The notes beneath the pieces are model-generated. The model saw nothing but the letters and a program-made list of their open reading frames with translations, was not told where the DNA came from and did not search any database. A stretch of DNA of 64,000 nt from Candidatus Nomurabacteria bacterium (GTDB lineage Bacteria; Patescibacteriota; Dojkabacteria; SC72; JAHDCA01): positions 34,864 through 98,863 of the forward strand of contig JACKFQ010000001.1 of NCBI GenBank assembly GCA_020632395.1. The letters run 5' to 3'. Position numbers and translations under genes: made by a program. Position 1 is the stretch's first letter; each line of letters opens with the position of its first letter. Below, in pieces: positions 5,848 through 64,000 of this stretch.

Positions 5848-8124
5848 GTGATCGCAGTGATGTATCTTTTAAATTATCAAAAAGTAAGAATGGACAGAAT
5901 ATTAGCATCAAAAACAACTGAAATGGTAGGAAAAGAAGTGAAAGTGTCAGGCTGGGTCTCAACGATCAGAGATCATGGACAGCTTGTATTTATTGATCTT
6001 CGTGATTGGTCTGGACGGATCCAACTGGTCATATATCCTGATCAGGAAGAAGCATTTGAGATCGCTAAAGGTCTTGGGGCTGAGTTTGTGATCAGTGCAA
6101 CAGGGATTGTCGTTGAAAGAGATAGCTCACTAGTGAACGAAAAATTAGATACAGGCAAGATCGAGATAAAAGTAGAGAAACTTGAATTGATAAACACCTC
6201 TCTACCGATACCATTTCCTTTGGACTCTGATGGACATGAACTGGATGAAAATCTAAGGTTGAAATATCGATATCTGGATCTTAGGAGGGAGCGATTGAAA
6301 GAGAATATGAAAAAGAAACATAAGCTTCTTCTTGCTGTCCGAAATTGGTTCTCTGAAAATGGTTTCACTGAAGTTATAACTCCTTTGCTAACCAGTACCT
6401 CCCCAGAGGGTGCAAGAGATTTTTATATCCCCTCAAGGATCCACCAGGGGAAGTTCTTCGTACTTCCTCAAGCACCACAGCAGTATAAACAGTTGCTCAT
6501 GGTGGGCGGTGTTGATAGATACTTTCAGATAGCACCTTGCGCGAGAGATGAGGATCCAAGGGCAGATAGACATGCGGGAGTTTTCTATCAGATCGATATC
6601 GAGATCAGTTTCCCAACAATAGATATGATCTTTGGCGTTGCCCAGGAGATGATACGATCTACATATCAATCTGTAGCACCTGAAAAGAAATTGATGGAAT
6701 ACCCCTTCCCACGGATCCCGTATGTTGAGGTATTTGATAGATTTGGTACTGATAAACCTGATCTGAGATTTGGGATGGAGCTGAAAGACCTGACGGAATT
6801 GTTGAAAGGAAAAACTGAATTCAAGATATTTAGTGAATCAGAAACTGTCAAATGTGTTGTCGCTCAGGGATGTGGAGTTTGGAGTAGAAAAGATATCGAT
6901 GAAATGGAGGTATTTGCAAAAGAGAATGGTGCAAAAGGTTTAGCATATGCCAAGGTCGTAGGTTCATCATTCAGTTCGGGTGTTTCAAAATATATCGAAC
7001 CATTTGCAAAAGAGATACTTGAAATTACCAGTGCAAAGGATGGCGATATGCTTTTCTTCGTGGCTGATGATCGTGCCGTGGTAAATAAAGTTCTGGGTGC
7101 TGTAAGAAGTCGCTTAGGTGACATGCTCGGTCTTAAGGACCCGAATCTACTTGCTTTAGTATGGATAACTGACTTTCCATTTTATGAGATGGATGAGAAG
7201 AATGGGAAATTGGATTTTGGTCACAACCCTTTTTCAATGCCCAAAGGTGGTATGGCTGCTTTTGATACTGATGATCCACTTACTATCCAATCACATCAGT
7301 ATGATCTAGCATTAAATGGTTATGAATTGGCATCAGGCTCCATCAGAAATCACGATCCGGAAGTGTTAGTAAAAGCATTTGAAACTGTCGGATACGATCG
7401 TGATGAGGTCATTAAAAGGTTTGGGGGCATGTTCAATGCGTTCCAGTACGGAGCACCTCCTCATGGTGGATGGGCAATAGGAGTTGATAGGATGTTCATG
7501 GTGCTAATCGATGAACCTAATATTCGCGATGTATATGCTTTCCCTAAGAACTCAAATGGTATGGATGTGATGATGAATGCGCCTAGCGAGGCTCCTGAAG
7601 CTGATCTTGATGTTCTAGGTATAGAATTGAAAGATAAGGGGTCGAAGACTGTCAAGAGGATCACAGATCGCCTAGATGCGATGAAGATCAACTACCAGTT
7701 AATGGAACATGAGCCTGTTAGGACATCTGAAGAAGCTGCAAAGATCCGCGGTACAAAATTGAGTGAAGGTGCAAAAGCTATGGTACTGCTGTCGAAAGAA
7801 TACGATAATAAGTTCTACATGGTAGTTATACCTGCTGATAAGCAATTAGATCTGCAGAAAGCCTCAAAATATATAGGGGAAGAAGTTCGAGTCGCATCAG
7901 CAGAGGAGGTCGAGGGGTATACAGGAGTTAAAGTAGGAGGAGTACCACCCTTTGGAAGATTGATGGGTATGGATCTGTTCTACGATAGATCTATGTATTC
8001 AAAGGAAAGATCCGCCTTCAATTGTGGTAGGAAAGATAGATCGATCATAATTCAAACAAAAGATCTTATTCGTGCAGCTCAACCTGATAAAAAGTCAGCT
8101 GATATGGATTTTCTGGTAGATTGA
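5848..8124 (+). CDS. aspS: Aspartyl-tRNA synthetase with a C-terminal YbaK/ProX-type aminoacyl-tRNA deacylase domain (fusion)
   Basis: N-terminal OB domain (VSGWVSTIRDHGQLVFIDLRD); class II motifs FYIPSR, QAPQQYKQLLMVGG, FQIAPCARDED, GGWAIGVDR. About 150 aa of YbaK-like sequence follow the normal AspRS end (MEHEPVRTSEEAAK...GVKVGGVPPFG). GAGGGA SD 9 nt before the GTG start. Confidence 0.85.
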   Translation: MIAVMYLLNYQKVRMDRILASKTTEMVGKEVKVSGWVSTIRDHGQLVFIDLRDWSGRIQLVIYPDQEEAFEIAKGLGAEFVISATGIVVERDSSLVNEKLDTGKIEIKVEKLELINTSLPIPFPLDSDGHELDENLRLKYRYLDLRRERLKENMKKKHKLLLAVRNWFSENGFTEVITPLLTSTSPEGARDFYIPSRIHQGKFFVLPQAPQQYKQLLMVGGVDRYFQIAPCARDEDPRADRHAGVFYQIDIEISFPTIDMIFGVAQEMIRSTYQSVAPEKKLMEYPFPRIPYVEVFDRFGTDKPDLRFGMELKDLTELLKGKTEFKIFSESETVKCVVAQGCGVWSRKDIDEMEVFAKENGAKGLAYAKVVGSSFSSGVSKYIEPFAKEILEITSAKDGDMLFFVADDRAVVNKVLGAVRSRLGDMLGLKDPNLLALVWITDFPFYEMDEKNGKLDFGHNPFSMPKGGMAAFDTDDPLTIQSHQYDLALNGYELASGSIRNHDPEVLVKAFETVGYDRDEVIKRFGGMFNAFQYGAPPHGGWAIGVDRMFMVLIDEPNIRDVYAFPKNSNGMDVMMNAPSEAPEADLDVLGIELKDKGSKTVKRITDRLDAMKINYQLMEHEPVRTSEEAAKIRGTKLSEGAKAMVLLSKEYDNKFYMVVIPADKQLDLQKASKYIGEEVRVASAEEVEGYTGVKVGGVPPFGRLMGMDLFYDRSMYSKERSAFNCGRKDRSIIIQTKDLIRAAQPDKKSADMDFLVD

Positions 8125-12138: not shown

Positions 12139-12770
12139 TGATCGTACTTGGTGGAGGTGGAGATGAAAAAAGCGGGTATGAAGCTCATAAACACTTTTAC
12201 ACACTCATAGGCAAGGATAACCCGAGAATACTGTACATCCCTGTCGCTCTTGACCCCACAAAACATCCTTGGGACAGTTGTTTATCATGGATAACAAATG
12301 CTTTTTATGGATTTGGCGATATTCATTTTGATATGATCACAGAATTAGACCAGCTATCTGGTTCTGCTCTCACGCAATATGATGGCATATATATCGGTGG
12401 TGGGAACACCTATAAACTTCTCAAGATCATATACGACACAGAGGTTGATGAAGCACTACGCAATTATGAAAAGAAAGGAGTGATCTTTGGGGGGAGTGCA
12501 GGAGCGATCATAATGGGTGCAGATATCTCTACAGCTGAGACATTTGATCCAAATGAGGTTGGTTTAGATGTAACGAAAGGTTTAGATATGATTTCTGGTT
12601 ATTCAGTATGGCCTCACTACACAGAAGATCATACTTCTAAAATAAAAGAATGGGTTAATGACCACCAGATCCCGGTATTAGCACTCTCTGAAGAAGATAC
12701 AGCCACTCTTGCAGATGGCAAATGGTCTTTATCCGGAATTCATCCTCAACTTTTCGATCTGCAACAGTAG
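12138..12770 (+). CDS. Peptidase E-like S51 family peptidase (alpha-aspartyl dipeptidase / cyanophycinase-like)
   Basis: Start trimmed to the ATG overlapping the gltX stop (TAATG). Motifs IYIGGGNTYKLL and GVIFGGSAGAIIMG; a His is present downstream. Confidence 0.7.
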   Translation: MIVLGGGGDEKSGYEAHKHFYTLIGKDNPRILYIPVALDPTKHPWDSCLSWITNAFYGFGDIHFDMITELDQLSGSALTQYDGIYIGGGNTYKLLKIIYDTEVDEALRNYEKKGVIFGGSAGAIIMGADISTAETFDPNEVGLDVTKGLDMISGYSVWPHYTEDHTSKIKEWVNDHQIPVLALSEEDTATLADGKWSLSGIHPQLFDLQQ

Positions 12771-29955: not shown

Positions 29956-30504
29956 ATGGAAAACTTCCTCTTACAAATATCAGGTTTGGTTGCAGTAATA
30001 ATTGCATGGGTGTTTGTAGTTACTCCTGCTATATGTTCAGGTATTGATCCTAAACGACAGACGATCACAAATGCTACTAAAAAGAGCAAACGGGTATCAT
30101 TCATAATATCATTTGGTCTTGTATTCAGTGCAATTTTCCAGTCAATATTTGCATTATACCTGATCGATAGATTCGATCTTTCTTTCAGCAATATCGGCAT
30201 TCTTGTATATCTGTCAACAAATATCGCTACTATGTTTCTTGCCTTTTTCCATATCGAACGTCATCCCAAACTCCACATATTTTTCGCTATCTATTACTTT
30301 ATTGTTTCTCCGATATCTTATGGTTTGATCGGTTCTTCGATATCAGGATCAAGCAATCACCTATTCGAACTTTCTATCCTGATGATACTTTTATACGGTT
30401 TTGGAGAATTAGTCTTGCTCTACAAATACCGGGGTGGCGCCTTAGCTGAGATATGGCCGATCTTATTACTGTCGATATGGACAATGGTGTTTACTATCGC
30501 CTAG
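29956..30504 (+). CDS. Hypothetical small membrane protein (about 5 TM)
   Basis: 182-aa hydrophobic ORF. Confidence 0.5.
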   Translation: MENFLLQISGLVAVIIAWVFVVTPAICSGIDPKRQTITNATKKSKRVSFIISFGLVFSAIFQSIFALYLIDRFDLSFSNIGILVYLSTNIATMFLAFFHIERHPKLHIFFAIYYFIVSPISYGLIGSSISGSSNHLFELSILMILLYGFGELVLLYKYRGGALAEIWPILLLSIWTMVFTIA

Positions 30505-30682
30505 ATCGATCATGGTATTTAGGGTGGGGTTTTTGATTAGGTTCTAGAGGAGATCCACAGTAAAGCTACTCCCCGTATCTGAAATATTCCTGTATCTGAT
30601 ATTTAGCTTTGAGATAGATCTATGTAAGATATGCAATTTGTTATATTTAAATAACAAATGTAAATTGAAACATAAATAGTAT

Positions 30683-31198
30683 ATGAGTGCTTTCTATAAA
30701 GGAATTGTATATAAAATCGGAAATTCGTTCCAAATTGTATATCCGATGAAAGGTATTGAAAGTTTTCTCAAACGAGGAAGCAATGAGATCGAAAATCATT
30801 TGACAAAATTAATTGTAAATAGCGAAGGATTTTATGACTCTTTGTTCCAAATAATTATTTTATGGAGTGATGGCAAAGATATAATGACTGATATTTGGTT
30901 GTACAAAGGTATTGAATCTGAAGATACAGGATATACAATCGATTGCAGAACATATCGAGATTTTAGTGAAGTTCATGAGGCTGGTATATCAGCGTCTGAC
31001 GGGATTGTTCTAATTGGAAAGGAAACGGAGCTAGCCGAAGATTATCGGAAAGAAAAAAATCTATTGAAGATTATATACATGGAAATAGGCCTAATATTGG
31101 AAATATCGATGTATTTTAAAAAACTCGCCAGATCGGACGATTTTCGCACGATTGATTGGGTGAAGGTGTTGAAGTATCCTGAGTTTGTAGATTCGTGA
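30683..31198 (+). CDS. Hypothetical protein
   Basis: 171-aa ORF in a very AT-rich context with no recognised motif. Confidence 0.4.
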   Translation: MSAFYKGIVYKIGNSFQIVYPMKGIESFLKRGSNEIENHLTKLIVNSEGFYDSLFQIIILWSDGKDIMTDIWLYKGIESEDTGYTIDCRTYRDFSEVHEAGISASDGIVLIGKETELAEDYRKEKNLLKIIYMEIGLILEISMYFKKLARSDDFRTIDWVKVLKYPEFVDS

Positions 31199-31603
31199 AT
31201 AACTGAATTTGTACCCCCTGAATTCTATATGTTCATACACATGTGGATTCTCTAGGTTTGTAGCCTTACTACGTTTGAACCTATGTTAGTGTCTATGATA
31301 TGAGTTGTAATTTTAAAGCTTCTGCATGGTGGATTGTCTAGTACTTTTCTGATAACAGCTGAAAGCAGTCTATGTCTATGAAAGTATTGGTTTGTAAGGT
31401 CTTGAGACAACAATCTTCCATATAGATTGGATGTATTATTAAACTCTATAAAATTGTAATAAACTGCTCTTCATTCGGAAATGATACAATAAAACTACAT
31501 AACTATTGAAAGATGTGTGTATTGTAGACATCGGGTGGATAGACGGAGATTTCTAGCGGCAATAATATTTCCAGGATAATATCTATATGTTAGAATTTTA
31601 AAT

Positions 31604-32533
31604 ATGAAAGACAGTGACATACATGTGATAAATGACCCTCCAAAAATGTCCGCAAATGAGGCAGAAGATAAACCCGCAGATAATACCAGCTCTGCAAAGA
31701 TAAAAACACAGCCTACCTCAAAAGGTCAAACCAGAGAGGTTAAACATCGTAAGTTTATTAACATATCCTTACTTGCCACATTCTTCTTACTCAGTATATT
31801 GGTAATGGTTGTCATCGGTTACTACGGATTTAGATACTATAATTATGTAATAGATGAAAACTCACAATCATCGGCCAAACAGCAAGAATTACCCGAGCCA
31901 GCGTCTGAGAACGAACAACTGATAGAGTCTGATCCAGAATCTAAGCCTGATCCGGCCCCACTAGAGCCAGTTCCTCATGATCCCGATATTAGATTGGGTA
32001 CATATTGCATGCTAGGGCTGTATCCAAATCAACAGATCGAATTTTATGGGTCAGATGATAAGTATCTCCTCATAGACAGTTGGAATGTAAATGATGGGGA
32101 AGAGAAAGAAATCTCATATACACTTTTTGATGGCAAGAACTACTATTTTTGGAATGAGGGTATATCATCACCATATTTTGATTATTCCGATTCAGCAATG
32201 ACTTACACGATTGAAGAGGCAAAGGATGATGGTTTAGATTATAGCTATCAACTTAAGGAAGTAGAAAAGCATCCAGAATCATGTTCGGACAAGGAATTTG
32301 ATTTCTATCTTTTAACCCCTCCAACAAATATTGAATTCAACACAACCCAGATGTTGACAGATCAATATATTGAAGAAAGTGAAAAAAGCGTTGAAAGGCT
32401 ATGTACTGTATGTCTAGAAGAGTTTTCAAGTAAGGAAGATCAGTTAGAATGTTTCAAGATCAGCAATATCTTCTTTCAGCAGCCAGATGATGTCGTTGAA
32501 GAGAATTTCGATCATTACTGCTTAGATCAATAA
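31604..32533 (+). CDS. Single-pass membrane protein with an acidic, Cys-containing extracytoplasmic domain
   Basis: TM at about residues 60-85; C-terminal CTVCLEEF...ECF...HYC. Confidence 0.5.
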   Translation: MKDSDIHVINDPPKMSANEAEDKPADNTSSAKIKTQPTSKGQTREVKHRKFINISLLATFFLLSILVMVVIGYYGFRYYNYVIDENSQSSAKQQELPEPASENEQLIESDPESKPDPAPLEPVPHDPDIRLGTYCMLGLYPNQQIEFYGSDDKYLLIDSWNVNDGEEKEISYTLFDGKNYYFWNEGISSPYFDYSDSAMTYTIEEAKDDGLDYSYQLKEVEKHPESCSDKEFDFYLLTPPTNIEFNTTQMLTDQYIEESEKSVERLCTVCLEEFSSKEDQLECFKISNIFFQQPDDVVEENFDHYCLDQ

Positions 32534-32824
32534 ATGAAAGCTTTGTTTATAGGAGATGGAGTGTTTCATCCCTAATGTTTCCTCACAGATTCCGAGACAA
32601 CAATTCTTACGATCAGGTATTACTGCTTGAGGTGTTTTATAAATTAAAGAACTGTTGTAGTTCTGAGACATTAAGTTGTCTTATTTGTATGTTTTGCATA
32701 GGTGATTATATATTACCAGAATAGGTTGAAAGAATGAAGAATAAAGCTTCCCATATATGACATATTCCTTAACCTGAAATTTAACTTTGAAGTTGATTAT
32801 TCCAAAATTACTAATCTATAAATT

Positions 32825-33559
32825 ATGCCGTATAGTATAAGTATGAAAGTTATACATACAATAGATAAAAATATTGACATTAAAATGGTCTACACAATGC
32901 TTAAATCCAATGACCCATCTGGAAACTGGAATAGAGCAAGTAGTATGGGAATAGAAAGAGGGTTGTTTGATTTAATAACTAAAAGTGAAAGTTTTAGAGA
33001 TGTAAAATATATATTATCAAATCTTTATGATGAGAAATATCTCAGAGATAAAAAGTTACTTTTTTCAATGAAGAAAGAATTTCAAAATGGATGGAAGGAA
33101 ATTAACGATATTTTTGAAAAAGAAACTGAAAATGTCGTTGGGAAAGATTGGAAGTATAAAGAATATAAAGTAATTGTGTCTTTGTTTCATCCTGGAGTAA
33201 GTAATATGCTAGGAGATATTGTTTATCTTTGGATTTATGATGACTTAGATGTTCATCTAAGAATAACTGCTCATGAACTTCTTATGACACATATTTGGCA
33301 ATATCTCTTTAAGAGATTTTCAGAAAAAGAGATATATAGTAATTGGAATAAATATTGGTCTATAAACGAAATAACAACGACGTACATTTTGGGTATTGAA
33401 CCTAAATTAAATTCTTTGTGGTCTGAAAGAATGAAAGGTTATGAAAACTTTTTACAAAATTACCCACAATTAAAAGAAAGTAGAGATACACTAGTTGAGA
33501 AATATAAGAATAGGGAAACATTTGATGAATTTGTTGATTATGCTTTGACCTTGTTTTAA
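32825..33559 (+). CDS. Hypothetical K/N/Y-rich protein abutting the tRNA-Asn 3' end
   Basis: 244-aa ORF of very low GC. Stop lies 4 bp from the tRNA 3' end on the opposite strand. Confidence 0.5.
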   Translation: MPYSISMKVIHTIDKNIDIKMVYTMLKSNDPSGNWNRASSMGIERGLFDLITKSESFRDVKYILSNLYDEKYLRDKKLLFSMKKEFQNGWKEINDIFEKETENVVGKDWKYKEYKVIVSLFHPGVSNMLGDIVYLWIYDDLDVHLRITAHELLMTHIWQYLFKRFSEKEIYSNWNKYWSINEITTTYILGIEPKLNSLWSERMKGYENFLQNYPQLKESRDTLVEKYKNRETFDEFVDYALTLF

Positions 33560-33562
33560 ATG

Positions 33563-33634
33563 CTCCGCGGGCAGGACTCGAACCTGCAACCCGCTGGTTA
33601 ACAGCCAGCTGCTCTACCATTGAGCTACCGCGGA
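33563..33634 (-). tRNA. tRNA-Asn (anticodon GUU)
   Basis: Manual cloverleaf on the minus strand: acceptor UCCGCGG/CCGCGGA, D arm AGCUCAAUGGUAGAGC, anticodon stem GCUGG/CCAGC with loop CUGUUAA, T arm GCAGG-UUCGAGU-CCUGC. CCA not encoded. Confidence 0.85.
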
Positions 33635-33860
33635 ATGACTCTCTGATTTAAATCTCTGTAGAGAACACTTAAGTATTATACTGGTGGCAAACAGTATTCG
33701 CAACTATAAATCATATGACGACAACATAGTACAAACAATGGTTTTGGATCATCAGTATACTAACTACAAGAGCTGTTTTTACAGTGATGAAAACCAACGG
33801 CAATGATTTTCGTTATTGGTCTGTAGATCGACTTCATCAGATCTATTCTGATCGACCCGT

Positions 33861-34526
33861 TCAGTATCTTTCCGCAGAATACTCTGGTCTGAGCAGATTT
33901 ATATCAATATATGCCTTATAAGATGCAAATAGCTCCCTGATAGTGAAAAACCACCTCATATTTGAAACTTCTTCTGAACCATATAACCCCGTGACTTCCA
34001 TACCAGCGTTCTGACATAGATATATACTTCTTGGCAGGTGATATTTTGAGGTGATCAGTATGGCTTCATTCAGATCATAGATCCCTTTACTTCTCATGCA
34101 ACTGTCATAGGTTCTATAACCAAATCCATCTAGGAGTATCGAATCAGTAGGTACTTGATACTGATCTATAAGGTAGTTACTCATGACGTCAACCTCGTTA
34201 TGATCTACGTCGTTGTTTCCTGATAGAAGTATCGTGGAAATTATACCTCGTTGGTATGCTTCTCCTGCAGTATCGAGTCGTTCTTTTAATATCGGATGGG
34301 GCGTTCCATCTTCTAATACTCCTGCACCAAGCACTATTGCTGTATTTGGTAATTCGATATCCATACTGATAGTATCTACTGGGTGGATCAAAGACCTGCT
34401 ATTGAAATTAAACGAAAAAAAAGGTGTGATCAGTAGAATTATCGCGAACCCAAAAAACAATAGATATCTACCAAGATGGTGTTTGTGCACTAAAGTATGG
34501 TTTTTTTTGCTAAAGGATCTATTCAA
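33861..34526 (-). CDS. SanA/YdcF (DUF218) family membrane-anchored protein
   Basis: N-terminal TM; IVLGAGVLEDGTPHPILKERLDTAGEAY matches the DUF218 core. Confidence 0.7.
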   Translation of the reverse strand: MNRSFSKKNHTLVHKHHLGRYLLFFGFAIILLITPFFSFNFNSRSLIHPVDTISMDIELPNTAIVLGAGVLEDGTPHPILKERLDTAGEAYQRGIISTILLSGNNDVDHNEVDVMSNYLIDQYQVPTDSILLDGFGYRTYDSCMRSKGIYDLNEAILITSKYHLPRSIYLCQNAGMEVTGLYGSEEVSNMRWFFTIRELFASYKAYIDINLLRPEYSAERY

Positions 34527-57487: not shown

Positions 57488-57563
57488 GCCGAGATAGCTC
57501 AGTTGGTAGAGCACCTGCCTGAAGAGCAGGGTGTCCCCAGTTCAAGTCTGGGTCTCGGCACCA
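57488..57563 (+). tRNA. tRNA-Phe (anticodon GAA), CCA encoded
   Basis: Acceptor GCCGAGA/UCUCGGC, D arm AGCUCAGUUGGUAGAGC, anticodon loop CUGAAGA, T arm CCCAG-UUCAAGU-CUGGG, ACCA. Confidence 0.9.
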
Positions 57564-57617: not shown

Positions 57618-57694
<77 letters not shown>

Positions 57695-57764: not shown

Positions 57765-58952
57765 TTAAAATTCAGTCATATCTGCAACTCTTCCAGCAGT
57801 CATATGTACAAGAAATGCCTGTATTACTTGGTCAATTGTATACGAGTTTTCAAGTCTACTAGCTAGTTTGAGAAGCGCAGACCTGATTTGTTTCTGACTA
57901 GGTACAAAGCGGCCTCCAAATATTTGATGTGGCATTACATTCATCATGGTATTACGGATTCGATTCATCTCTTGAGTATTTCCAAAAAGCGATGAGAACC
58001 CAACCCAAAAATTGAATCCATTTGGATTCACTCCAAGCATTTCAGGAAGCATTACACTAAAAAAAACATTCCAGTCCTTATACATCTTTGAGTTGATAGT
58101 CGTTTCTATAGATCCTTCTTCGAAATCTATGATTGATGTATCAAGCCTGTCGTTAATCATAACTTGATTCCAACTAAGTTCTCCATGAGCGACTCCGATC
58201 AGATGCAAATCAATCAGGGTTCCTAAAGTGCTACGTATAACAATATCTCTTTCACTTGGAGAGAGGGTATGTAGTCTGTCTAATAGAGGGAAATAACCGT
58301 CAAGCCACTCCATTGCTAAGATTCCAGTGTTATTGGGGAGTTCATATGGCAGTGCTGTTGAAGGGTATCCAACTAGCCCTTTTGAATCTATATATCTTAG
58401 TACTCTAGCTTCATTAATAGCTTTGGATGGGAAATTATATGATTTAACGAATATTGATACTCCATTCGGTAAGCTGATTTTTGCTGTAGGATTTGAGGAA
58501 GTCCCGATTAACTGATAGCTACTCATGCCAGGGAATCTTCTACAAAAACTCTCTAGTCTACTAATTGAAGATTTATCTGGATCGGTCTCGAAATCTATAA
58601 GTTCCATCAATCTCACATTTGCCATATCAAAAACTCTACCGTATGTGGTTTGTTGGATTAACATTATATCGCTATCGGGAGAATGCGAGATACAAGTAAC
58701 TGGTGTCGTTAAAGGCAATGTGTTGACAACTAGTGGCCTAAAAAGCATGTCTGGTGATATGTTGCCCATTTGAAAGTCCGAACATGCGACAACACCACGG
58801 CTATAGACTCTAATAGCTTCACGCTCTTCAACAGGGATAAGTCTACCTGCAAGCATTGAGCGTAAAGAATTTACATCATCAAGATATTCAGGGATCGCTA
58901 AAAATGATCTTAATCGTCTAGTTTTTTCTCTAATATTTTCTACTTTATGCAT
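57765..58952 (-). CDS. Protein-kinase-like fold phosphotransferase (APH/choline-kinase-like), function unknown
   Basis: Catalytic-loop-like HLIGVAHGELSWNQVMIN (cf. HGDLHPGN) and metal-binding IIDFEEG (cf. IDFE / DFG). Confidence 0.45.
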   Translation of the reverse strand: MHKVENIREKTRRLRSFLAIPEYLDDVNSLRSMLAGRLIPVEEREAIRVYSRGVVACSDFQMGNISPDMLFRPLVVNTLPLTTPVTCISHSPDSDIMLIQQTTYGRVFDMANVRLMELIDFETDPDKSSISRLESFCRRFPGMSSYQLIGTSSNPTAKISLPNGVSIFVKSYNFPSKAINEARVLRYIDSKGLVGYPSTALPYELPNNTGILAMEWLDGYFPLLDRLHTLSPSERDIVIRSTLGTLIDLHLIGVAHGELSWNQVMINDRLDTSIIDFEEGSIETTINSKMYKDWNVFFSVMLPEMLGVNPNGFNFWVGFSSLFGNTQEMNRIRNTMMNVMPHQIFGGRFVPSQKQIRSALLKLASRLENSYTIDQVIQAFLVHMTAGRVADMTEF

Positions 58953-59200
58953 CCCGATATTGTACTATAGGTTAGTGCGGGGGTCCAGATTAAATATTTA
59001 TTAGAGTATATAAGTAATCATCTATGACACATGATCATCTATATGCGAAAAAATGTTAAATATTCATATCTAAATATTGTTTATTTAATACAGACAAAAG
59101 GATCTATTGAATAAATGCTAACTTCAGAATTGGATTAGTTACTAGATTAATCATTTACATTCTAGTTCTAACTTCGTCCCATACCTTGCTCAGTAAAAAT

Positions 59201-59225
59201 GACCCCGATAGGGGTCGTTTTTATT
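59201..59225. terminator. Bidirectional terminator hairpin (GACCCC-GAUA-GGGGUC) flanked by A-run and U-run
   Basis: Perfect 6-bp GC-rich stem with AAAAAU upstream and GUUUUUAUU downstream. Confidence 0.5.
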
Positions 59226-59669
59226 GAGCATTTTGTCATAGTTCGAACTCCATCAGTGCGAAGCACTGAGAGTTCTGAAAACATGCAGTACATGCTTCTG
59301 CATGTATCTAGCGAGCGTCATCTCGTTTCCCGCTTCAAAAGAAAAGTTAATCAAACATTCCATGAATCTATTTACACTAAACCATTTTACCGAACTACAT
59401 TGGTTCGAGCTTTGTTCTACCAAACTTACTAACAAACGCAAGTGTACCATTACACCAAGTATATCTCGGTTCGAACCCAGTGTGATGTAGCTTATCTACA
59501 TATCATAAATCAATAGAATTTTTCTTTGCTGTCATTCTCCAAAGTACATAAAACATTGAAGACTGTGTAATTAAGAATCGGAACAAATATTTAGTCATAG
59601 CAGTAATTTGTAGACGAATTTCAAATTATTAAATAACGAAAATACCGACTTTACTGAGTAAAATCAAAA

Positions 59670-60320
59670 TTATATTTTAATTTGATTCATTATTATTGCT
59701 CCGGCAGCTCCCACAAACACAATCTTAGCTTCTGGACTAATTTTTCGTAGAGATTCTTCTTGTATACCCAAATTCCTAACTTCAGATAATGTTGTACTAC
59801 TTCTCGCTTGTTCCTGGAGCCTCTTTAAGCTAGCTGTTGATACCCGAAATAAAAGAGGGTTATCATCAGTTGGAATAGGTTCTCTTAAAAGGTATGTCCT
59901 GAATACTGCTGCTAAAGATAATCTTTCTGGCACAGCACCTTGCAATATTAAAGTTTCAGGATTGCGCCCAGGTGCATATGGTAATTCATCCAATAAGTTC
60001 CAACCCTCTGCATACAGAGGGGACGTGGTGACCTTTGCAATTCCACCACTACTTGATTTTGTCACAAACTCAAATTCATTTGCCTCGAGACCTAGTTCTT
60101 CCTGATACTCTCTTAACATTGTTTCCTCAAGGGATCTATCAATTTTTGGTGCATGTTTTCCTCCGGGCGAGCCAACAATCCATGTCTCTCCAGCAGGACA
60201 ATTGCCACTGAAAATCAAATCTCCATCTTGTGTTCGACATATCGACCCCGTAGTTAGAACTGGACGAATGATATTGTCACCAGCTTGCACTTGAGGATAA
60301 TAATAATCGGGATTTATCAT
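59670..60320 (-). CDS. NUDIX-like hydrolase domain protein
   Basis: Approximate Nudix box GGKHAPKIDRSLEETMLREYQEELGL (RExxEExG present, spacing imperfect). C-terminal IVFVGAAGAIIM resembles the S51 peptidase Ser motif. Confidence 0.4.
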   Translation of the reverse strand: MINPDYYYPQVQAGDNIIRPVLTTGSICRTQDGDLIFSGNCPAGETWIVGSPGGKHAPKIDRSLEETMLREYQEELGLEANEFEFVTKSSSGGIAKVTTSPLYAEGWNLLDELPYAPGRNPETLILQGAVPERLSLAAVFRTYLLREPIPTDDNPLLFRVSTASLKRLQEQARSSTTLSEVRNLGIQEESLRKISPEAKIVFVGAAGAIIMNQIKI

Positions 60321-60329
60321 GATATATAT

Positions 60330-60760
60330 TTATTTAGCCTTTCTCATTAACTAAAATACTAGCTTTCGGAAACTTCACTCCAGTGATCCGCTTAGCGTGA
60401 CATACAATGGTATTAGGGATTAAACCTAGCCCTTGACTAAATTGTCCATAAAATCTACTATAATACTCTCACCAAAGAACTAACGCACCTGCAGAAACTC
60501 CAATTATCAATCCAGTATGTGATATTAATACTTCTCTATATGCTTCCACATCATACTTAAAAGTTAAAACATCTCCTCCATCCATTAAATAAGATCATTC
60601 TCTTTATTGTCTCTAGGTGTGTGTGGAATCAGTATGTCAGGATTGGAAACACCTAACTGTGAATTTACATCAACAACGATATCATCCCACCTCTCTTGTG
60701 ATTTACCCCATGGAAATAATCACAATCTGTTGCTGTCTTCTAAACATTGACCAATTATAT
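60330..60760 (-). pseudogene. Decayed S51 (peptidase E-like) pseudogene fragments
   Basis: Minus-strand translations give DIVVDVNSQLGVSNPDILIP...MDGGDVLTFKYDVEAYREVLISHTGLIIGVSAGALVLW*, collinear with DIHFDMITELDQLSGSALTQ...IYIGGGNTYKLLKIIYDTEVDEALRNYEKKGVIFGGSAGAIIMG of the intact copy at 12138-12770. Interrupted by stops and frameshifts. Confidence 0.4.
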
Positions 60761-60841
60761 TCCAAAATTAAGTATTCATTGTTTCTTCATTTCTCTCAGT
60801 TATTCCACCATGCAAAATTTATCGTTCAGATTGATTATTCA

Positions 60842-62431
60842 TCATTTGTTTTCAGCCATAACCTTTCTTTGGAAAGTTTTTAACGCCCGCTTCACAGAGT
60901 TGTCTACATCATATCTTTTATCTGAGTCAAAACGAAGAGAAGCTGGTTCGCTTATTAAGACCAATTTTTCTTCCGGTCGATCTGCTACAACTTGTAACAC
61001 AGTAATCGTGAGTGAGTTCATCTCCTCGTCATAACAATAATCTAATACTTGTCCAGGTGCTTCAGATAGCTCCTGAGCAGAATCAGCTCCAATTTTTATT
61101 GCTTCCGTTTCATCTTTAAAAGGAAGTATAAATTGACGTTCATTATTTATTCCAATTACCTTATAGTTTATTTTTGCATTTGGTTGTTTTGATAACAATC
61201 CTGCAATTTGCCAATCCAAGCCCAACTTACTAATCCTTTCCAGATCAATGATGGGATCCTGATTAATAAATATTCCTGGTGCACCTTCGACAAAACTACT
61301 TGTTGACACTTGTTCAGCCAGTGTTGTTATACTTTCCGAGATAGTATGACCTGCAGCGGATAAAATTTGTGTTTTGAAGTTATTTGCATGAGAAACGCTT
61401 TCTATACGGTTATTCAGCTTGTTAACTATATCCTGGAATAATAAATCGTCAACTCTAACTTCGTTAACTAAATTTCCTTCAGATTGATGTTCATTTAAAA
61501 TTTTTAATATATTCCGCATTTCTGATGGTGTGACACCTAACCCCATACAAACTTGTAAGAAAGTATTATATAAGTTAGTTACTAATCTTTCTTGTACAGA
61601 TCCCTTTGATTTAGGAAACACACCAGAATATGCCGTTGTAATTATGGTACGAGCCAAATCCGCTAATTTAAAAACTCTTCTATCATTTTCGTTTTCTGGC
61701 TTTAAATTATTGATGCTCGCAATTTCATCTATTGGAAATAACGATGTCTGAAAGACATCTAGCTTATTTTCACGTATCGCTACAACCCGTTCTACACTTC
61801 CACCACTTTGTGCCATTGGCGGATCAAGCAATTGATCACCTGCTTGTGAAATAATCGTTAAATTCTGCAATTCCCAATTAATTGGTACTCCTTCAATCTC
61901 TGCATCTGCTACAAATTCTACTCGGTATCCAGCTCGGTTTGTTTTCTCAGGTTTGTCGAAATGACATTTATCATCCAATGTAAACGGCATATTCAATGTC
62001 TTAAGAGAATCTTGTGAAGCAACATCTTTTGGATGAACTCTAGCTACAATATTGCATGTATTCGGCAGTAAAGCATGTAACATTGAATTCACTTTTGAGA
62101 TAGCATCGAAGGAATCCATTTTCCCCCAAAAGCCTAACATGTCAAACGTTTTCAAATGTCTCGTAGATTCACCAGCATCACACCAAATAGAGCTGCTTTG
62201 TTGCAGCTGCTGGTTTTTACCCCTCCTAATGCATCTTACCAAAGCCATGCTTGATTGCATTTGTGTGGGAGGTTCATTAACGTATAAATCCTCGTTTGCC
62301 ATAGCACTCATAAAAACAAACTCAGTCTTTTCATATCCACTTCCTGGAAGTATTGATGTTTGTGTGACAAATTTAATCCCAATTGATTGTGCAACAGTTC
62401 TTAGATCATTTTGATTTTCTGGTGTTTGCAT
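60842..62431 (-). CDS. Large hypothetical protein (529 aa) co-transcribed with the nucleotidyltransferase
   Basis: Long ORF with low GC. Start overlaps the NTase stop by 26 nt. No recognised catalytic motif; weak Rx5H (RIESVSH) only. Confidence 0.5.
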   Translation of the reverse strand: MQTPENQNDLRTVAQSIGIKFVTQTSILPGSGYEKTEFVFMSAMANEDLYVNEPPTQMQSSMALVRCIRRGKNQQLQQSSSIWCDAGESTRHLKTFDMLGFWGKMDSFDAISKVNSMLHALLPNTCNIVARVHPKDVASQDSLKTLNMPFTLDDKCHFDKPEKTNRAGYRVEFVADAEIEGVPINWELQNLTIISQAGDQLLDPPMAQSGGSVERVVAIRENKLDVFQTSLFPIDEIASINNLKPENENDRRVFKLADLARTIITTAYSGVFPKSKGSVQERLVTNLYNTFLQVCMGLGVTPSEMRNILKILNEHQSEGNLVNEVRVDDLLFQDIVNKLNNRIESVSHANNFKTQILSAAGHTISESITTLAEQVSTSSFVEGAPGIFINQDPIIDLERISKLGLDWQIAGLLSKQPNAKINYKVIGINNERQFILPFKDETEAIKIGADSAQELSEAPGQVLDYCYDEEMNSLTITVLQVVADRPEEKLVLISEPASLRFDSDKRYDVDNSVKRALKTFQRKVMAENK

Positions 62432-63173
62432 ATTTCAAAATTGCATCAATTAGATTCGTATCAATTTGATAAGAATTAATACAAGAAATTATTAGGTCTT
62501 TGTCTTCCTTTGAAAATGACTCAATATTATCTTTATAGTGCTTCATACCTACAAAATACATATCATTCTGGATATTGACTAATCTTATATAGCTGTAAAG
62601 CATTTCAGAATAGTTAATCAACTTACTTATGTTATTTCCTTTCTCAAAAACTTTATAATGATGATTAATCAATTTAATAAGTTGTTCTGTCAGGTTTGTT
62701 TTAAATTTCTCAGGAATCTTTTGTAAGAAATTTCTAAATTGTTTTATTTGGCCATTTCTATCAAAAAGAATATGAGATCTTACAATATCGTCAAAAAATA
62801 TTTCAGGGATATTAGGTCCTGTACTCCAAAATACTGTAGATCCGAGTACTTTGTTTGATTCTGAATCTGTAAAGCCTTTAATCTCGTCAATAAATTCCAC
62901 TATACCCTTAAAGCAAAAACTTACTTCCTTTTGTAAAACATTATCAAAATATCTAACTACATCATCACTAAAGTAATATGGTTCTTTTTGTATTAAATGA
63001 GAAAGTGACTTGTAAATATCTGACTCAAGGTTGTCAACTATAATAATAAAATCAATATCATTAGCTTTCTTTTCGCCATACTTTGCAGCAGATCCGACAA
63101 GCAGAACTGAGTTCACAGAAGAATCTGCTTTTAAACTTTCAACAATTTGATTAATTCTTTTATTTTCTTTCAT
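62406..63173 (-). CDS. Pol-beta-superfamily nucleotidyltransferase (KNTase/ANT-like minimal NTase + helical C-domain)
   Basis: VLLVGSAAKYGEKKANDIDFIIIVD is the hG[GS]x9-13Dh[DE]h NTase signature. About 150-aa helical C-terminal domain. Confidence 0.65.
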   Translation of the reverse strand: MKENKRINQIVESLKADSSVNSVLLVGSAAKYGEKKANDIDFIIIVDNLESDIYKSLSHLIQKEPYYFSDDVVRYFDNVLQKEVSFCFKGIVEFIDEIKGFTDSESNKVLGSTVFWSTGPNIPEIFFDDIVRSHILFDRNGQIKQFRNFLQKIPEKFKTNLTEQLIKLINHHYKVFEKGNNISKLINYSEMLYSYIRLVNIQNDMYFVGMKHYKDNIESFSKEDKDLIISCINSYQIDTNLIDAILKYANTRKSK

Positions 63174-63996
63174 TAAAACTTCTAATTTGGTCTAAATTAT
63201 TCTGCAACTGATGGTTATTGGAAACACCAATCAGTATTTTTATACGTTTATTACTTAACACTTCAATATTTTCTTCTAGAAAGTTTCGCAAAAACTTGTT
63301 TCCAATATTTTTTCGCTCAATAAGCTTGTAATCTGAATTACGAATTAAACGCATATCATCAATAGCAAGATCATTGATGTTTTTCAACAATAATCCTTGT
63401 AAGAAAATACTACGTAGTATGAAAGGTTGGGTAGGTAATTTCACAACAATTTCTTTTGCCCAAGAATTCATGTGATTATACGGCACCATCAACTCATCGA
63501 CAACGGGAAAGTCTTTGGTACTACTAGTATTGTAATTATCAGGAAGGGAAATTCCAAACTTCAGTAACTTTCCTTCCCTTTTTAACTTTTCTATTAATTC
63601 TAATATTCCAGAACCCTCAAAATTGAATGATTTATGCCAATTATGTAAATATAATGTATTGATTATATTTACTTTAAGTGAATTTAGCGACTTATCAACA
63701 GCTTTCTCAAGGTAATTAATTGGATAGTATTCATCAATATTTGTAACTTGATCTGTAACCGAAAACCTACTTAGTGACGGAATTTTTGTATTTATCAACA
63801 GCTGATTTCGCTTTGGATATAAACCAATAACGTCTTCTAATTGACCATAAACTTGAGCAGTGTCAATTTCTCGTAGACCATAATCAATAATTTTGTCAAA
63901 AAGTTTATATAACTGGTCTTTTGACATATCTTTTTTATGCCACCCCGCACTTGAAAGCCCCCATGTACCAATTATCAACTTATCACTAGTTTTCAT
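63160..63996 (-). CDS. Aldo-keto reductase family oxidoreductase
   Basis: N-terminal IIGTWGLSSAGW...DYGLREIDTAQVYGQ matches the AKR motif. Start codon at 63994-63996. Overlaps the NTase start by 14 nt. Confidence 0.65.
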   Translation of the reverse strand: MKTSDKLIIGTWGLSSAGWHKKDMSKDQLYKLFDKIIDYGLREIDTAQVYGQLEDVIGLYPKRNQLLINTKIPSLSRFSVTDQVTNIDEYYPINYLEKAVDKSLNSLKVNIINTLYLHNWHKSFNFEGSGILELIEKLKREGKLLKFGISLPDNYNTSSTKDFPVVDELMVPYNHMNSWAKEIVVKLPTQPFILRSIFLQGLLLKNINDLAIDDMRLIRNSDYKLIERKNIGNKFLRNFLEENIEVLSNKRIKILIGVSNNHQLQNNLDQIRSFNERK

Positions 63997-64000
63997 TATA

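Follow-up and report, generated by a model that had tools for sequence, protein, structure and literature searches.

A radical-SAM cassette with an alanyl-tRNA synthetase-like protein in Candidatus Nomurabacteria and other bacteria: a candidate nucleotide-tailoring cluster

What kind of biochemistry a minimal nucleotidyltransferase (NTase) performs together with a large protein of no recognisable family is the question raised by the end of a 64,000-nucleotide stretch of DNA from Candidatus Nomurabacteria bacterium (GenBank assembly GCA_020632395.1, contig JACKFQ010000001.1, positions 34,864 to 98,863 of the forward strand), called the window in the following. An earlier note made from the sequence alone had described three overlapping minus-strand genes, encoding an aldo-keto reductase (AKR), the NTase and a 529-aa protein, as one coupled operon of low GC content, and had suspected the module to extend beyond the window. 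The gene order and the overlaps of 14 nt (AKR/NTase) and 26 nt (NTase/529-aa gene) are exact by the coordinates of the open reading frames (ORFs), and past the window end a fourth overlapping gene is found which encodes a 424-aa radical S-adenosylmethionine (rSAM) enzyme. As this gene overlaps the start of the AKR gene by 11 nt, the operon order is rSAM-AKR-NTase-529-aa gene, followed by an S51 peptidase pseudogene and a NUDIX gene. The cassette thus delimited comprises approximately 6.4 kb enclosed by direct repeats and is indeed AT-richer than the backbone, with 33.2% versus 39.5% GC (same-size backbone windows: standard deviation 1.8%, minimum 34.7%) and a GC content at third codon positions (GC3) of 0.22-0.27 versus 0.354±0.033. 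Horizontal acquisition of a compositionally foreign cassette is the best explanation for this segment. An identical NTase sequence occurs on a contig of 1.09 Mb that belongs to Candidatus Nomurabacteria bacterium GCA_020632435.1, and on 11 further contigs, several of them derived from other sequencing samples.

The low-GC operon is no isolated case: copies of its cassette are found in several bacterial phyla, and the conserved core of the module consists of the NTase and the rSAM enzyme. All loci retrieved, some of them with a narrow rSAM alignment, were scanned using hidden Markov models (HMMs) built from the cassette proteins, upon which rSAM and NTase genes were found adjacent in at least 14 non-redundant loci. 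An AKR gene is present in 11 loci with a close-clade rSAM gene or a gene for a relative of the 529-aa protein, identified below as alanyl-tRNA synthetase (AlaRS)-like; the AlaRS-like gene itself occurs in 10 of those, in five gene orders. The lineages concerned are Microgenomates, Dojkabacteria, Peribacteria, a metagenome-assembled genome (MAG) deposited as Rickettsiales and unassigned metagenome contigs (Table 1). The components are not only adjacent but also fused, as the AlaRS-like protein is joined to a NUDIX domain in L009 and L011, the AKR to a NUDIX domain in L018, the rSAM enzyme to the AKR in L019 and, in protein P0069, the AlaRS-like protein to an NTase that matches the HMM of the cassette NTase at E=3e-35. 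The proposed pairing of the NTase with the 529-aa protein is thereby borne out by at least seven independent cassettes in addition to the fusion. Equally, the assignment of the S51 and NUDIX genes to the module is supported by the NUDIX fusions and by S51 genes beside four independent cassettes, intact next to L011, L019 and L107. Chance adjacency is excluded by this conserved linkage and the fusions across phyla.

A sister cassette, in which a class I/II aminotransferase takes the place of the AKR directly after the rSAM gene (L012, L015, L103 and L106), adds a chemical clue. Its NTase-rSAM head, the part that was compared, is also found in L024, L026 and L028; isochorismatase is another of the sister-cassette genes, and L106 additionally carries thymidylate kinase and MazG. 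Nucleotide-handling neighbours are a common theme, with NUDIX in nearly every cassette and kinases of the AAA_17 and AAA_28 types among the others, to which Metallophos in L104 also belongs. In the Dojkabacteria locus L017, a 394-aa truncated class I aminoacyl-tRNA synthetase (aaRS)-like protein (6827-8011, minus strand; PF00133 E=3.3e-10, with HMGN and RMSKH motifs) is encoded between a full methionyl-tRNA synthetase (MetRS) gene and AKR-rSAM-NTase, where it possibly stands in for the AlaRS-like component as a non-orthologous replacement. Second, unrelated rSAM genes, for a B12-binding rSAM enzyme in L102 (1096-2761, minus strand) and for a SPASM-type rSAM enzyme in L015 (6057-7205, plus strand), are hints at further tailoring steps.

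The statement that the 529-aa protein has no recognisable family holds for routine scans, as nothing above threshold is found in Pfam, NCBIfam or PADLOC, but not at the profile level. A word-indexed search of 5.8 billion proteins returned the protein itself and one relative cluster, P0002 (31% identical), with which the blocks VRCIRRG, RH-x3-FDMLGF, KPEKTNR-x-GYRVEF, WELQNL and GGSVER are conserved. The profile of these two sequences finds E. coli AlaRS (3hxu; E=1.2e-3) in an alignment that keeps motifs 2 and 3 as well as the first helix of the tRNA domain in register, and an exhaustive HMMER search over 1.84 billion representatives retrieves 54 proteins at E≤1e-3 (12 at E≤1e-30), including full-length proteins of approximately 870 aa at E=3.7e-7 with N-termini that are motif-for-motif like E. 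coli AlaRS. A 41-member family profile aligns with AlaRS catalytic fragments at E=1.9e-69 over residues 1-409, a value to be read as transitive evidence because the profile contains Pfam-positive members: PF01411 (tRNA-synt_2c) is reached at E<=0.01 by 21 of the 41, the window protein not being one of them. The AF2 structure prediction from the two-sequence alignment is unusable (pLDDT 37), and the identity rests on the profile searches. By these, the 529-aa protein is a truncated, divergent AlaRS paralogue composed of a class II aminoacylation core and the helical domain with which AlaRS binds the tRNA acceptor stem.

Comparison with canonical AlaRS (3hxu, 1riq, 9jc7) shows what has been preserved and what has been lost. 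Shared are VRCIRRG...RH-x3-F-D-M-L-G, E172, W-E-L-x-N, GGSVER and the first tRNA-recognition helices; in contrast, the window protein has 529 instead of approximately 870 aa, several loops are deleted, neither a tRNA_SAD/editing domain nor a C-Ala domain is present, and its gene resides in a low-GC island linked to rSAM, NTase and AKR genes. Within the family, the arginines of motif 2 (R69, at the position that contacts the ATP alpha-phosphate) and motif 3 (R215, within G-x-G-x-E-R), Glu172 and Glu187 are conserved in 41/41 members and the Asn212 equivalent in 40/41. The position of Asp235 (E. coli numbering, by a reference sequence cross-checked only against the 3hxu alignment fragments), which binds the alpha-amino group in AlaRS, is occupied by Asp in 26 members, by Glu in 12, by Gln in two, namely the window protein (Gln208) and P0002, and by Asn in one. 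Motifs 2 and 3 thus place the protein in the superfamily of class II aaRS and AlaRS catalytic cores, while architecture and the Asp235 position set it apart from housekeeping AlaRS. Since neither the ATP-binding arginines of the two motifs nor the Asn212 equivalent has been lost, ATP-dependent activation is to be expected for the family, whose members would be ATP-competent paralogues. With about 50 representative clusters among 1.84 billion, these proteins appear to constitute an undescribed aaRS paralogue family. The idea that the C-terminus is a degenerate NUDIX domain was rejected, as BLASTP finds no similarity between the last approximately 130 aa and the fused NUDIX domains.

The rSAM enzyme belongs to its superfamily by the CPLRCSYC sequence, a CX3CX2C [4Fe-4S] motif, and a partial TIM-barrel fold. 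The closest fold is that of spore photoproduct lyase (SPL), with an identity of 13% to 4fhc. At the sequence level the enzyme is not a member of the SplB family, since no SplB model matches; the score against the PA0069 family is 25.6 bits (cut-off 360), and the viperin clade does not include it either. Unlike SPL and the COG1533 'DNA repair photolyase' proteins (PA0069 and Rv2578c families), the cassette enzyme possesses its own C-terminal alpha/beta domain of approximately 100 aa and is always coupled to an NTase. Only about 20 relatives were found in the word-indexed search of 5.8 billion proteins. The subsequently encoded AKR belongs to its superfamily (Aldo_ket_red PF00248, E=5.7e-23, 81.9 bits) with the D45/Y50/K71/H118 tetrad located by motif.

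Separate from the cassette, distant rSAM relatives (22-28% identity) are encoded in operons with a DEDDh 3'-5' exonuclease, an AAA_28 ATPase/kinase and an AKR or HD protein, which account for 28 of 73 distant loci and come from metagenome contigs and plasmids of Alphaproteobacteria and Streptomyces. The two examined, L037 (7914-11051) and L109 (Labrenzia plasmid pBCL1, NZ_CP011928; 6124-9743), both adjoin restriction-modification genes, HsdR in one case and a 950-aa N6-methylase in the other. These operons look like a separate uncharacterised candidate conflict system and may indicate a larger uncharted class of rSAM-based conflict systems.

The NTase had been noted for its GS-x10-DID motif and a helical C-terminal domain, and the motif can be read directly as VGS-x10-DID, with NTP_transf_2 (PF01909) at 23.2 bits above the cut-off of 21, which places the protein in the superfamily of Pol-beta-fold NTases; the conserved Glu of the next strand is present in most cassette orthologues. 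These orthologues are only 18-27% identical, and share the GS...DxD core and the invariants W116, E124 and R197 in the helical domain. No homologues appeared in the word-indexed search, and database similarities are limited to the N-terminal fold (approximately 50-100 residues). The three assignments that had been considered, to resistance enzymes of the aminoglycoside nucleotidyltransferase (ANT)/KNTase type, to minimal nucleotidyltransferase (MNT) antitoxins and to SMODS/CD-NTases, do not stand, as no family cut-off is reached. In NCBIfam the scores are 18.7 bits for ANT(9) (cut-off 340, E=8e-4), 17.7 bits for Lnu(F) (cut-off 450, E=1.7e-3) and 15.2 bits in a further ANT/Lnu comparison (cut-off 540), with MntA at E=0.076; the PADLOC small NTases PDC-S09/M05A match at E of about 3e-3, the PDB entries 9xbd (a 120-aa NTase) at E=3.4e-4 and 6sxj at E=0.017, and CD-NTase-type entries at E of about 0.5. 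PADLOC and Pfam scans of the cassette NTase yield no CD-NTase, and no HEPN, effector, cyclase or sensor partner resides beside its gene, the neighbours of which are the AKR and the AlaRS-like gene. From these sub-threshold and exclusively N-terminal matches it follows that the protein is not a resistance enzyme, MNT antitoxin or CD-NTase. ANT(3'')(9), ANT(9) and Lnu(F) resemble it in size (approximately 255-265 aa), in the N-terminal GS...DxD Pol-beta domain and in a helical C-terminal domain, but the cassette NTase has its own invariant W-x2-G-x4-E plus Arg motif in the latter.

Downstream, the 216-aa ORF is a NUDIX protein (PF00293, 21.5 bits versus a cut-off of 21.1) with the box REYQEELGL, the upstream Glu of which is out of canonical register. 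Against a database of nine NUDIX sequences, phmmer aligns it with the cassette NUDIX of L012 at 8.6e-6, and it is a stand-alone counterpart of the NUDIX domain that other cassettes carry as part of the AlaRS-like protein or of the AKR. The S51-like C-terminal tail that had been ascribed to it was rejected (E=7.7). The S51 relics are borne out, with modest support, as a decayed pseudogene and not an intact peptidase: the characteristic residues can still be read, the N-terminal third is gone and the frame is interrupted by a TGA codon. The relic matches an intact cassette-linked S51 sequence by tblastn at E=3e-5 (2-kb database) and is found in a six-frame HMM search of the window with a domain E=0.005; the stitched peptide stays below Pfam thresholds. 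Searched with the profile of the cassette-linked S51 proteins, the window gives its best hit (domain E=1.7e-5) in the backbone, at an apparently intact S51-type gene (approximately 12381-12650, plus strand), which might compensate for the dead cassette copy.

What the cassette could produce is suggested by the combination of these enzymes. Gene content, motifs, folds, linkage and fusions are observed, and from them we infer what the substrate is, how each reaction proceeds and which role the product plays. With a probability of roughly 0.45, the cassette encodes a short biosynthetic pathway to a nucleotide or nucleoside that is modified on the sugar, possibly also aminoacylated, and used in antiviral or antibacterial conflict, whereby the nucleotide-modifying or antibiotic-like module of the earlier note is the one of its suggestions that fits best. 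As the first step, the SPL-fold rSAM enzyme would abstract a hydrogen from a nucleotide sugar to give a keto or aldehyde intermediate, which the AKR would reduce, with net deoxygenation or epimerisation, and which the aminotransferase of the sister cassette would turn into an amine instead; alternation of AKR and aminotransferase after the rSAM gene is expected if the rSAM product is a carbonyl. Next, NUDIX could trim phosphates and so detoxify the triphosphate or expose the nucleoside, after which the AlaRS-like enzyme would activate an amino acid and esterify or amidate the modified nucleoside or an RNA 3' end bearing it. The NTase, as invariable partner of the rSAM enzyme, might then transfer a nucleotidyl group onto this substrate or remove one from it; the AlaRS-like::NTase fusion suggests that both enzymes act on one substrate. 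Finally, the S51 hydrolase, dead in the window genome, might strip the aminoacyl group as a means of immunity or activation. The product could be a chain-terminating or translation-poisoning nucleotide analogue directed against phages or other bacteria. Conflict, antiviral or antibacterial, is the probable biological role, the only pointers to which are the island features and neighbours of defence type in L104, in L105 and in the distant operons of L037 and pBCL1.

Several observations weigh against this proposal. No cassette component matches a characterised biosynthetic enzyme above family threshold, PADLOC contains no model for the cassette (rSAM, AKR, AlaRS-like), and the NTase role is the weakest step of the pathway. 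SPL, the nearest rSAM fold, acts on DNA rather than on free nucleotides; since distant rSAM relatives stand beside a DEDDh exonuclease and both the helical domain and Pol-beta NTases classically work on RNA 3' ends, a polymer substrate is equally compatible. Gln at the Asp235 position may mean that the activated acid is perhaps not a standard amino acid. The cassette has no transporter or regulator, which argues against a secreted antibiotic. Finally, the cassette may be decaying in this lineage, given the dead S51 gene and an AlaRS-like gene that is frameshifted at codon 71 by a 1-nt deletion in a G-run in one sample (Logan SRR17907851, contig L004, 3221-4809), a frameshift that may be a real loss of function or a homopolymer assembly error.

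A polymer substrate is the premise of two further explanations. In the main rival, a system for the remodelling or repair of RNA or tRNA 3' ends, the SPL-like rSAM enzyme would act on damaged or target nucleic acid, the NTase would extend a tRNA-like 3' end, the AlaRS-like protein would aminoacylate the acceptor stem, NUDIX would remove a 5' cap or pyrophosphate and the AKR would reduce an aldehyde lesion. The tRNA 3' end is a known substrate class for both the AlaRS and the Pol-beta NTase superfamilies, and the AlaRS-like family can be aligned with AlaRS up to about residue 409, the helical domain for tRNA recognition included; equally, the best structural match of the rSAM enzyme to a DNA-repair enzyme, the exonuclease coupled to its distant relatives and the AlaRS-like::NTase fusion, which fits two enzymes with a shared substrate, are in line with this explanation. 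It is nevertheless rather unlikely, as the kinases, thymidylate kinase, MazG, NUDIX and the AKR/aminotransferase alternation indicate small-molecule nucleotide chemistry, no tRNA-like gene was found in the cassette, the region around Asn303, with which AlaRS reads G3:U70, looks poorly conserved by eye, and the S51 peptidase has no obvious role. Similar enzymes might be arranged as a weapon: the rSAM enzyme with the AKR or aminotransferase would make a 3'-deoxy- or 3'-amino-nucleoside triphosphate (NTP), the NTase would install it on tRNA or RNA and the AlaRS-like enzyme would charge it, so that translation is blocked by a non-hydrolysable (amide-linked) or dead-end aminoacyl-tRNA or by a puromycin-like aminoacyl-nucleoside, and the producer would owe its own protection to NUDIX and the S51 hydrolase. 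Such an immune or antagonistic pathway, to which we give a small chance, would be the first with an aaRS paralogue family so dedicated and the first such system described in bacteria of the candidate phyla radiation (CPR).

Without any role in conflict, the cassette could be a nucleotide or cofactor salvage module of the reduced CPR metabolism, serving for example damaged or unusual nucleotides scavenged from a host. CPR genomes rely on salvage, with which NUDIX, kinases, isochorismatase and aminotransferase in the sister cassettes are in agreement; still, we consider this improbable given the patchy island-like distribution, the low GC content with repeats and an insertion sequence (IS) here, the defence-type neighbours elsewhere, the rarity of rSAM relatives and the combination of an aaRS-like ligase with an rSAM enzyme, unusual for such a module. 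The remaining explanations centre on the NTase. An MNT-type toxin-antitoxin or CBASS-like signalling defence, which had also been considered, can refer to the weak N-terminal similarity to MntA, PDC-S09/M05A and 9xbd, but this is sub-threshold throughout and reflects the generic Pol-beta fold, and an NTase of 255 aa that has a conserved C-terminal domain of its own, invariably accompanies an rSAM enzyme and lacks a HEPN, effector, cyclase-specific or sensor partner makes it very unlikely. Hardly credible is an ordinary ANT/Lnu resistance NTase that lies beside a divergent housekeeping AlaRS and metabolic genes by chance: two-domain size and architecture are like those of ANT(3'')(9) and Lnu(F), and the N-terminus matches ANT(9), Lnu(F) and 6sxj, but scores of 18-19 bits face cut-offs of 340-450, the 529-aa protein is very rare, linked to the NTase, bears Gln at Asp235 and is devoid of editing and C-Ala domains, and the linkage and fusions across phyla effectively refute the idea.

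The chemistry proposed for a sugar-modified nucleotide has counterparts in established pathways. AprD4/AprD3, an rSAM dehydratase and a reductase, accomplish a deoxygenation; BtrN together with an aminotransferase accomplishes an amination; and the aminonucleoside route of puromycin uses Pur10, Pur4, the NUDIX enzyme Pur7 and Pur6. The pathway proposed for the cassette resembles these in that a sugar carbonyl would be made and then reduced or transaminated, in the action of NUDIX on a modified NTP and in a ligase that adds an amino acid. The cassette equally resembles prokaryotic viperins (pVips), rSAM enzymes in variable or defence-type neighbourhoods together with nucleotide kinases, in the expectation of a chain-terminating nucleotide. 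The Ophion rSAM defence system has PHP and PRTase partners (bioRxiv 2025.09.30.679545), whereas the partners of the cassette rSAM enzyme are others. AcmF from ascamycin biosynthesis is the closest precedent for the AlaRS-like protein; this truncated AlaRS-like enzyme attaches alanine to a nucleoside sulfamate, a step which the hydrolase AcmE has been proposed to reverse (PMC12945691, where the AcmF work is cited as Zheng et al. 2024, ACS Catal 14:3533). AcmF is reported to have lost most ATP-binding and alanine-activating residues, to use pre-charged Ala-tRNA as donor and to carry D232E (PMC12945691). Compared by description, both AcmF and the window family, which aligns over approximately residues 1-409, are AlaRS paralogues cut down to the aminoacylation and tRNA-recognition domains, both are clustered with nucleoside-modifying enzymes and a hydrolase that could undo acylation, and the Asp that binds the alpha-amino group is substituted in both, by Glu in AcmF and, in the window family, by Gln208 in the window protein and Glu in 12/41 members. 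In contrast to AcmF, the window family still has the arginines of motifs 2 and 3 together with the Asn212 equivalent, its host belongs to the CPR and not to Streptomyces, and genes of the sulfamate pathway were not recognised in the cassettes examined.

Full-text literature searches combining the component names yielded no paper that describes the gene set of the cassette. We rate it as an rSAM-based nucleotide-tailoring cluster with an aaRS-like tailoring enzyme, with no categorically new principle in evidence. The fusions and the alternation of AKR and aminotransferase supply a concrete chemical hypothesis for three functionally uncharacterised families, those of the AlaRS-like protein, the NTase and the rSAM enzyme of the COG1533 type. 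Should the cassette produce a modified or aminoacylated nucleotide, a new route to chain terminators or to puromycin- or ascamycin-like molecules would be at hand; aaRS-like enzymes would take part in nucleoside chemistry, a role of theirs discovered only recently, outside Streptomyces as well, and ultra-small CPR bacteria would carry mobile cassettes for chemical warfare or antiviral defence.

Table 1. Features of the cassette and its surroundings (window coordinates unless a contig is named), and gene content of cassettes at other loci
Feature or locus	Position	Strand	Description
rSAM enzyme, 424 aa	63986-65260 (L001 7914-9188)	-	first operon gene; only 63986..64000 inside the window (last 11 coding nt and stop region)
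AKR, 278 aa	63160-63996	-	PF00248, tetrad motifs
NTase, 255 aa	62406-63173	-	two-domain Pol-beta fold; GS-x10-DID, PF01909
AlaRS-like protein, 529 aa	60842-62431	-	class II core and tRNA-recognition helical domain by profile
S51 peptidase pseudogene	~60334-60594	-	GGD, SAGA (serine) and CH (histidine) motifs; in-frame TGA at 60469-60471
NUDIX hydrolase, 216 aa	59670-60320	-	Nudix box, PF00293
Direct repeat of ~184 nt, right copy	59164-59338	-	cassette boundary, with bidirectional terminator hairpin
395-aa protein	57765-58952	-	weak Bud32/RIO-type kinase similarity (NCBIfam E=2e-4); just outside the repeats
tRNA-Gly(GCC)	57618-57694	+	~1.5 kb off the cassette border
tRNA-Phe(GAA)	57488-57563	+	~1.5 kb off the cassette border
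IS200/IS605-type element	L001 6864-7379		141-aa Y1 transposase between CGACCTTACGGTCGGGG hairpins; abuts the left repeat, outside the cassette
Window/L001 (Nomurabacteria), L009 (Microgenomates), L008 and L011 (unassigned)			rSAM-AKR-NTase-AlaRS-like
L018 (MAG deposited as Rickettsiales)			AlaRS-like-NTase-rSAM-AKR
L019 (Peribacteria)			AlaRS-like-NTase-rSAM::AKR
L017 (Dojkabacteria)			AKR-rSAM-NTase, truncated class I aaRS-like gene alongside
L102			rSAM-AKR facing NTase-AlaRS-like-NUDIX
L022/L023			AlaRS-like divergent from rSAM-AKR
L104			NTase-rSAM-AKR-Metallophos, next to a trypsin-STAND protein
L107			AKR-AlaRS-like, with S51
L108			rSAM-AlaRS-like-NTase
L012-16, L015, L103, L106 (sister cassette)			NTase-rSAM-aminotransferase-NUDIX-AAA_17 kinase-24x aa
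L105 (third form, 21 contigs)			NUDIX-NTase-rSAM-AAA_28, then OLD/TOPRIM nuclease and PIN protein

The surroundings of the cassette show features of an island. The two direct repeats are 6434 nt apart, the second copy being situated past the window end (L001 7393-7576), and are 94-97% identical in ungapped segments and 89.7% identical over the full length including the gap. The repeat holds a strong 20-bp bidirectional terminator and folds very stably (minimum free energy -69.4 kcal/mol, z=-6.2), and no Rfam family fits it. Possible identities are a site of attachment or recombination and an undescribed small RNA. A circular element was considered and rejected, as 6.3-kb cassette-only Logan contigs are not circular and break inside the flanking repeats. 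Equally, a phage origin finds no support, since cassette relatives are absent from IMG/VR and GenBank phages and the fold matches in BFVD are generic rSAM proteins. The IS200-type element is missing at the same spot in the 99.7%-identical contig L002, the left flank of which is unrelated. In this sister contig the gene of the 395-aa kinase-like protein is interrupted by an insertion of approximately 1 kb with inverted ends and a TTAATCGGG target duplication; as the gene lies outside the repeats and is disrupted by an IS in the sister strain, it is not counted in the module. Between the NUDIX gene and the repeat, the non-coding stretch (approximately 59340-59670) contains T-loop-like GTTCGAA fragments, possibly remnants of an integration site. 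A second stretch of low GC content (0.33-0.35) at approximately 30000-34000 of the window adjoins a tRNA-Asn gene (33562-33634) and is maybe another island.

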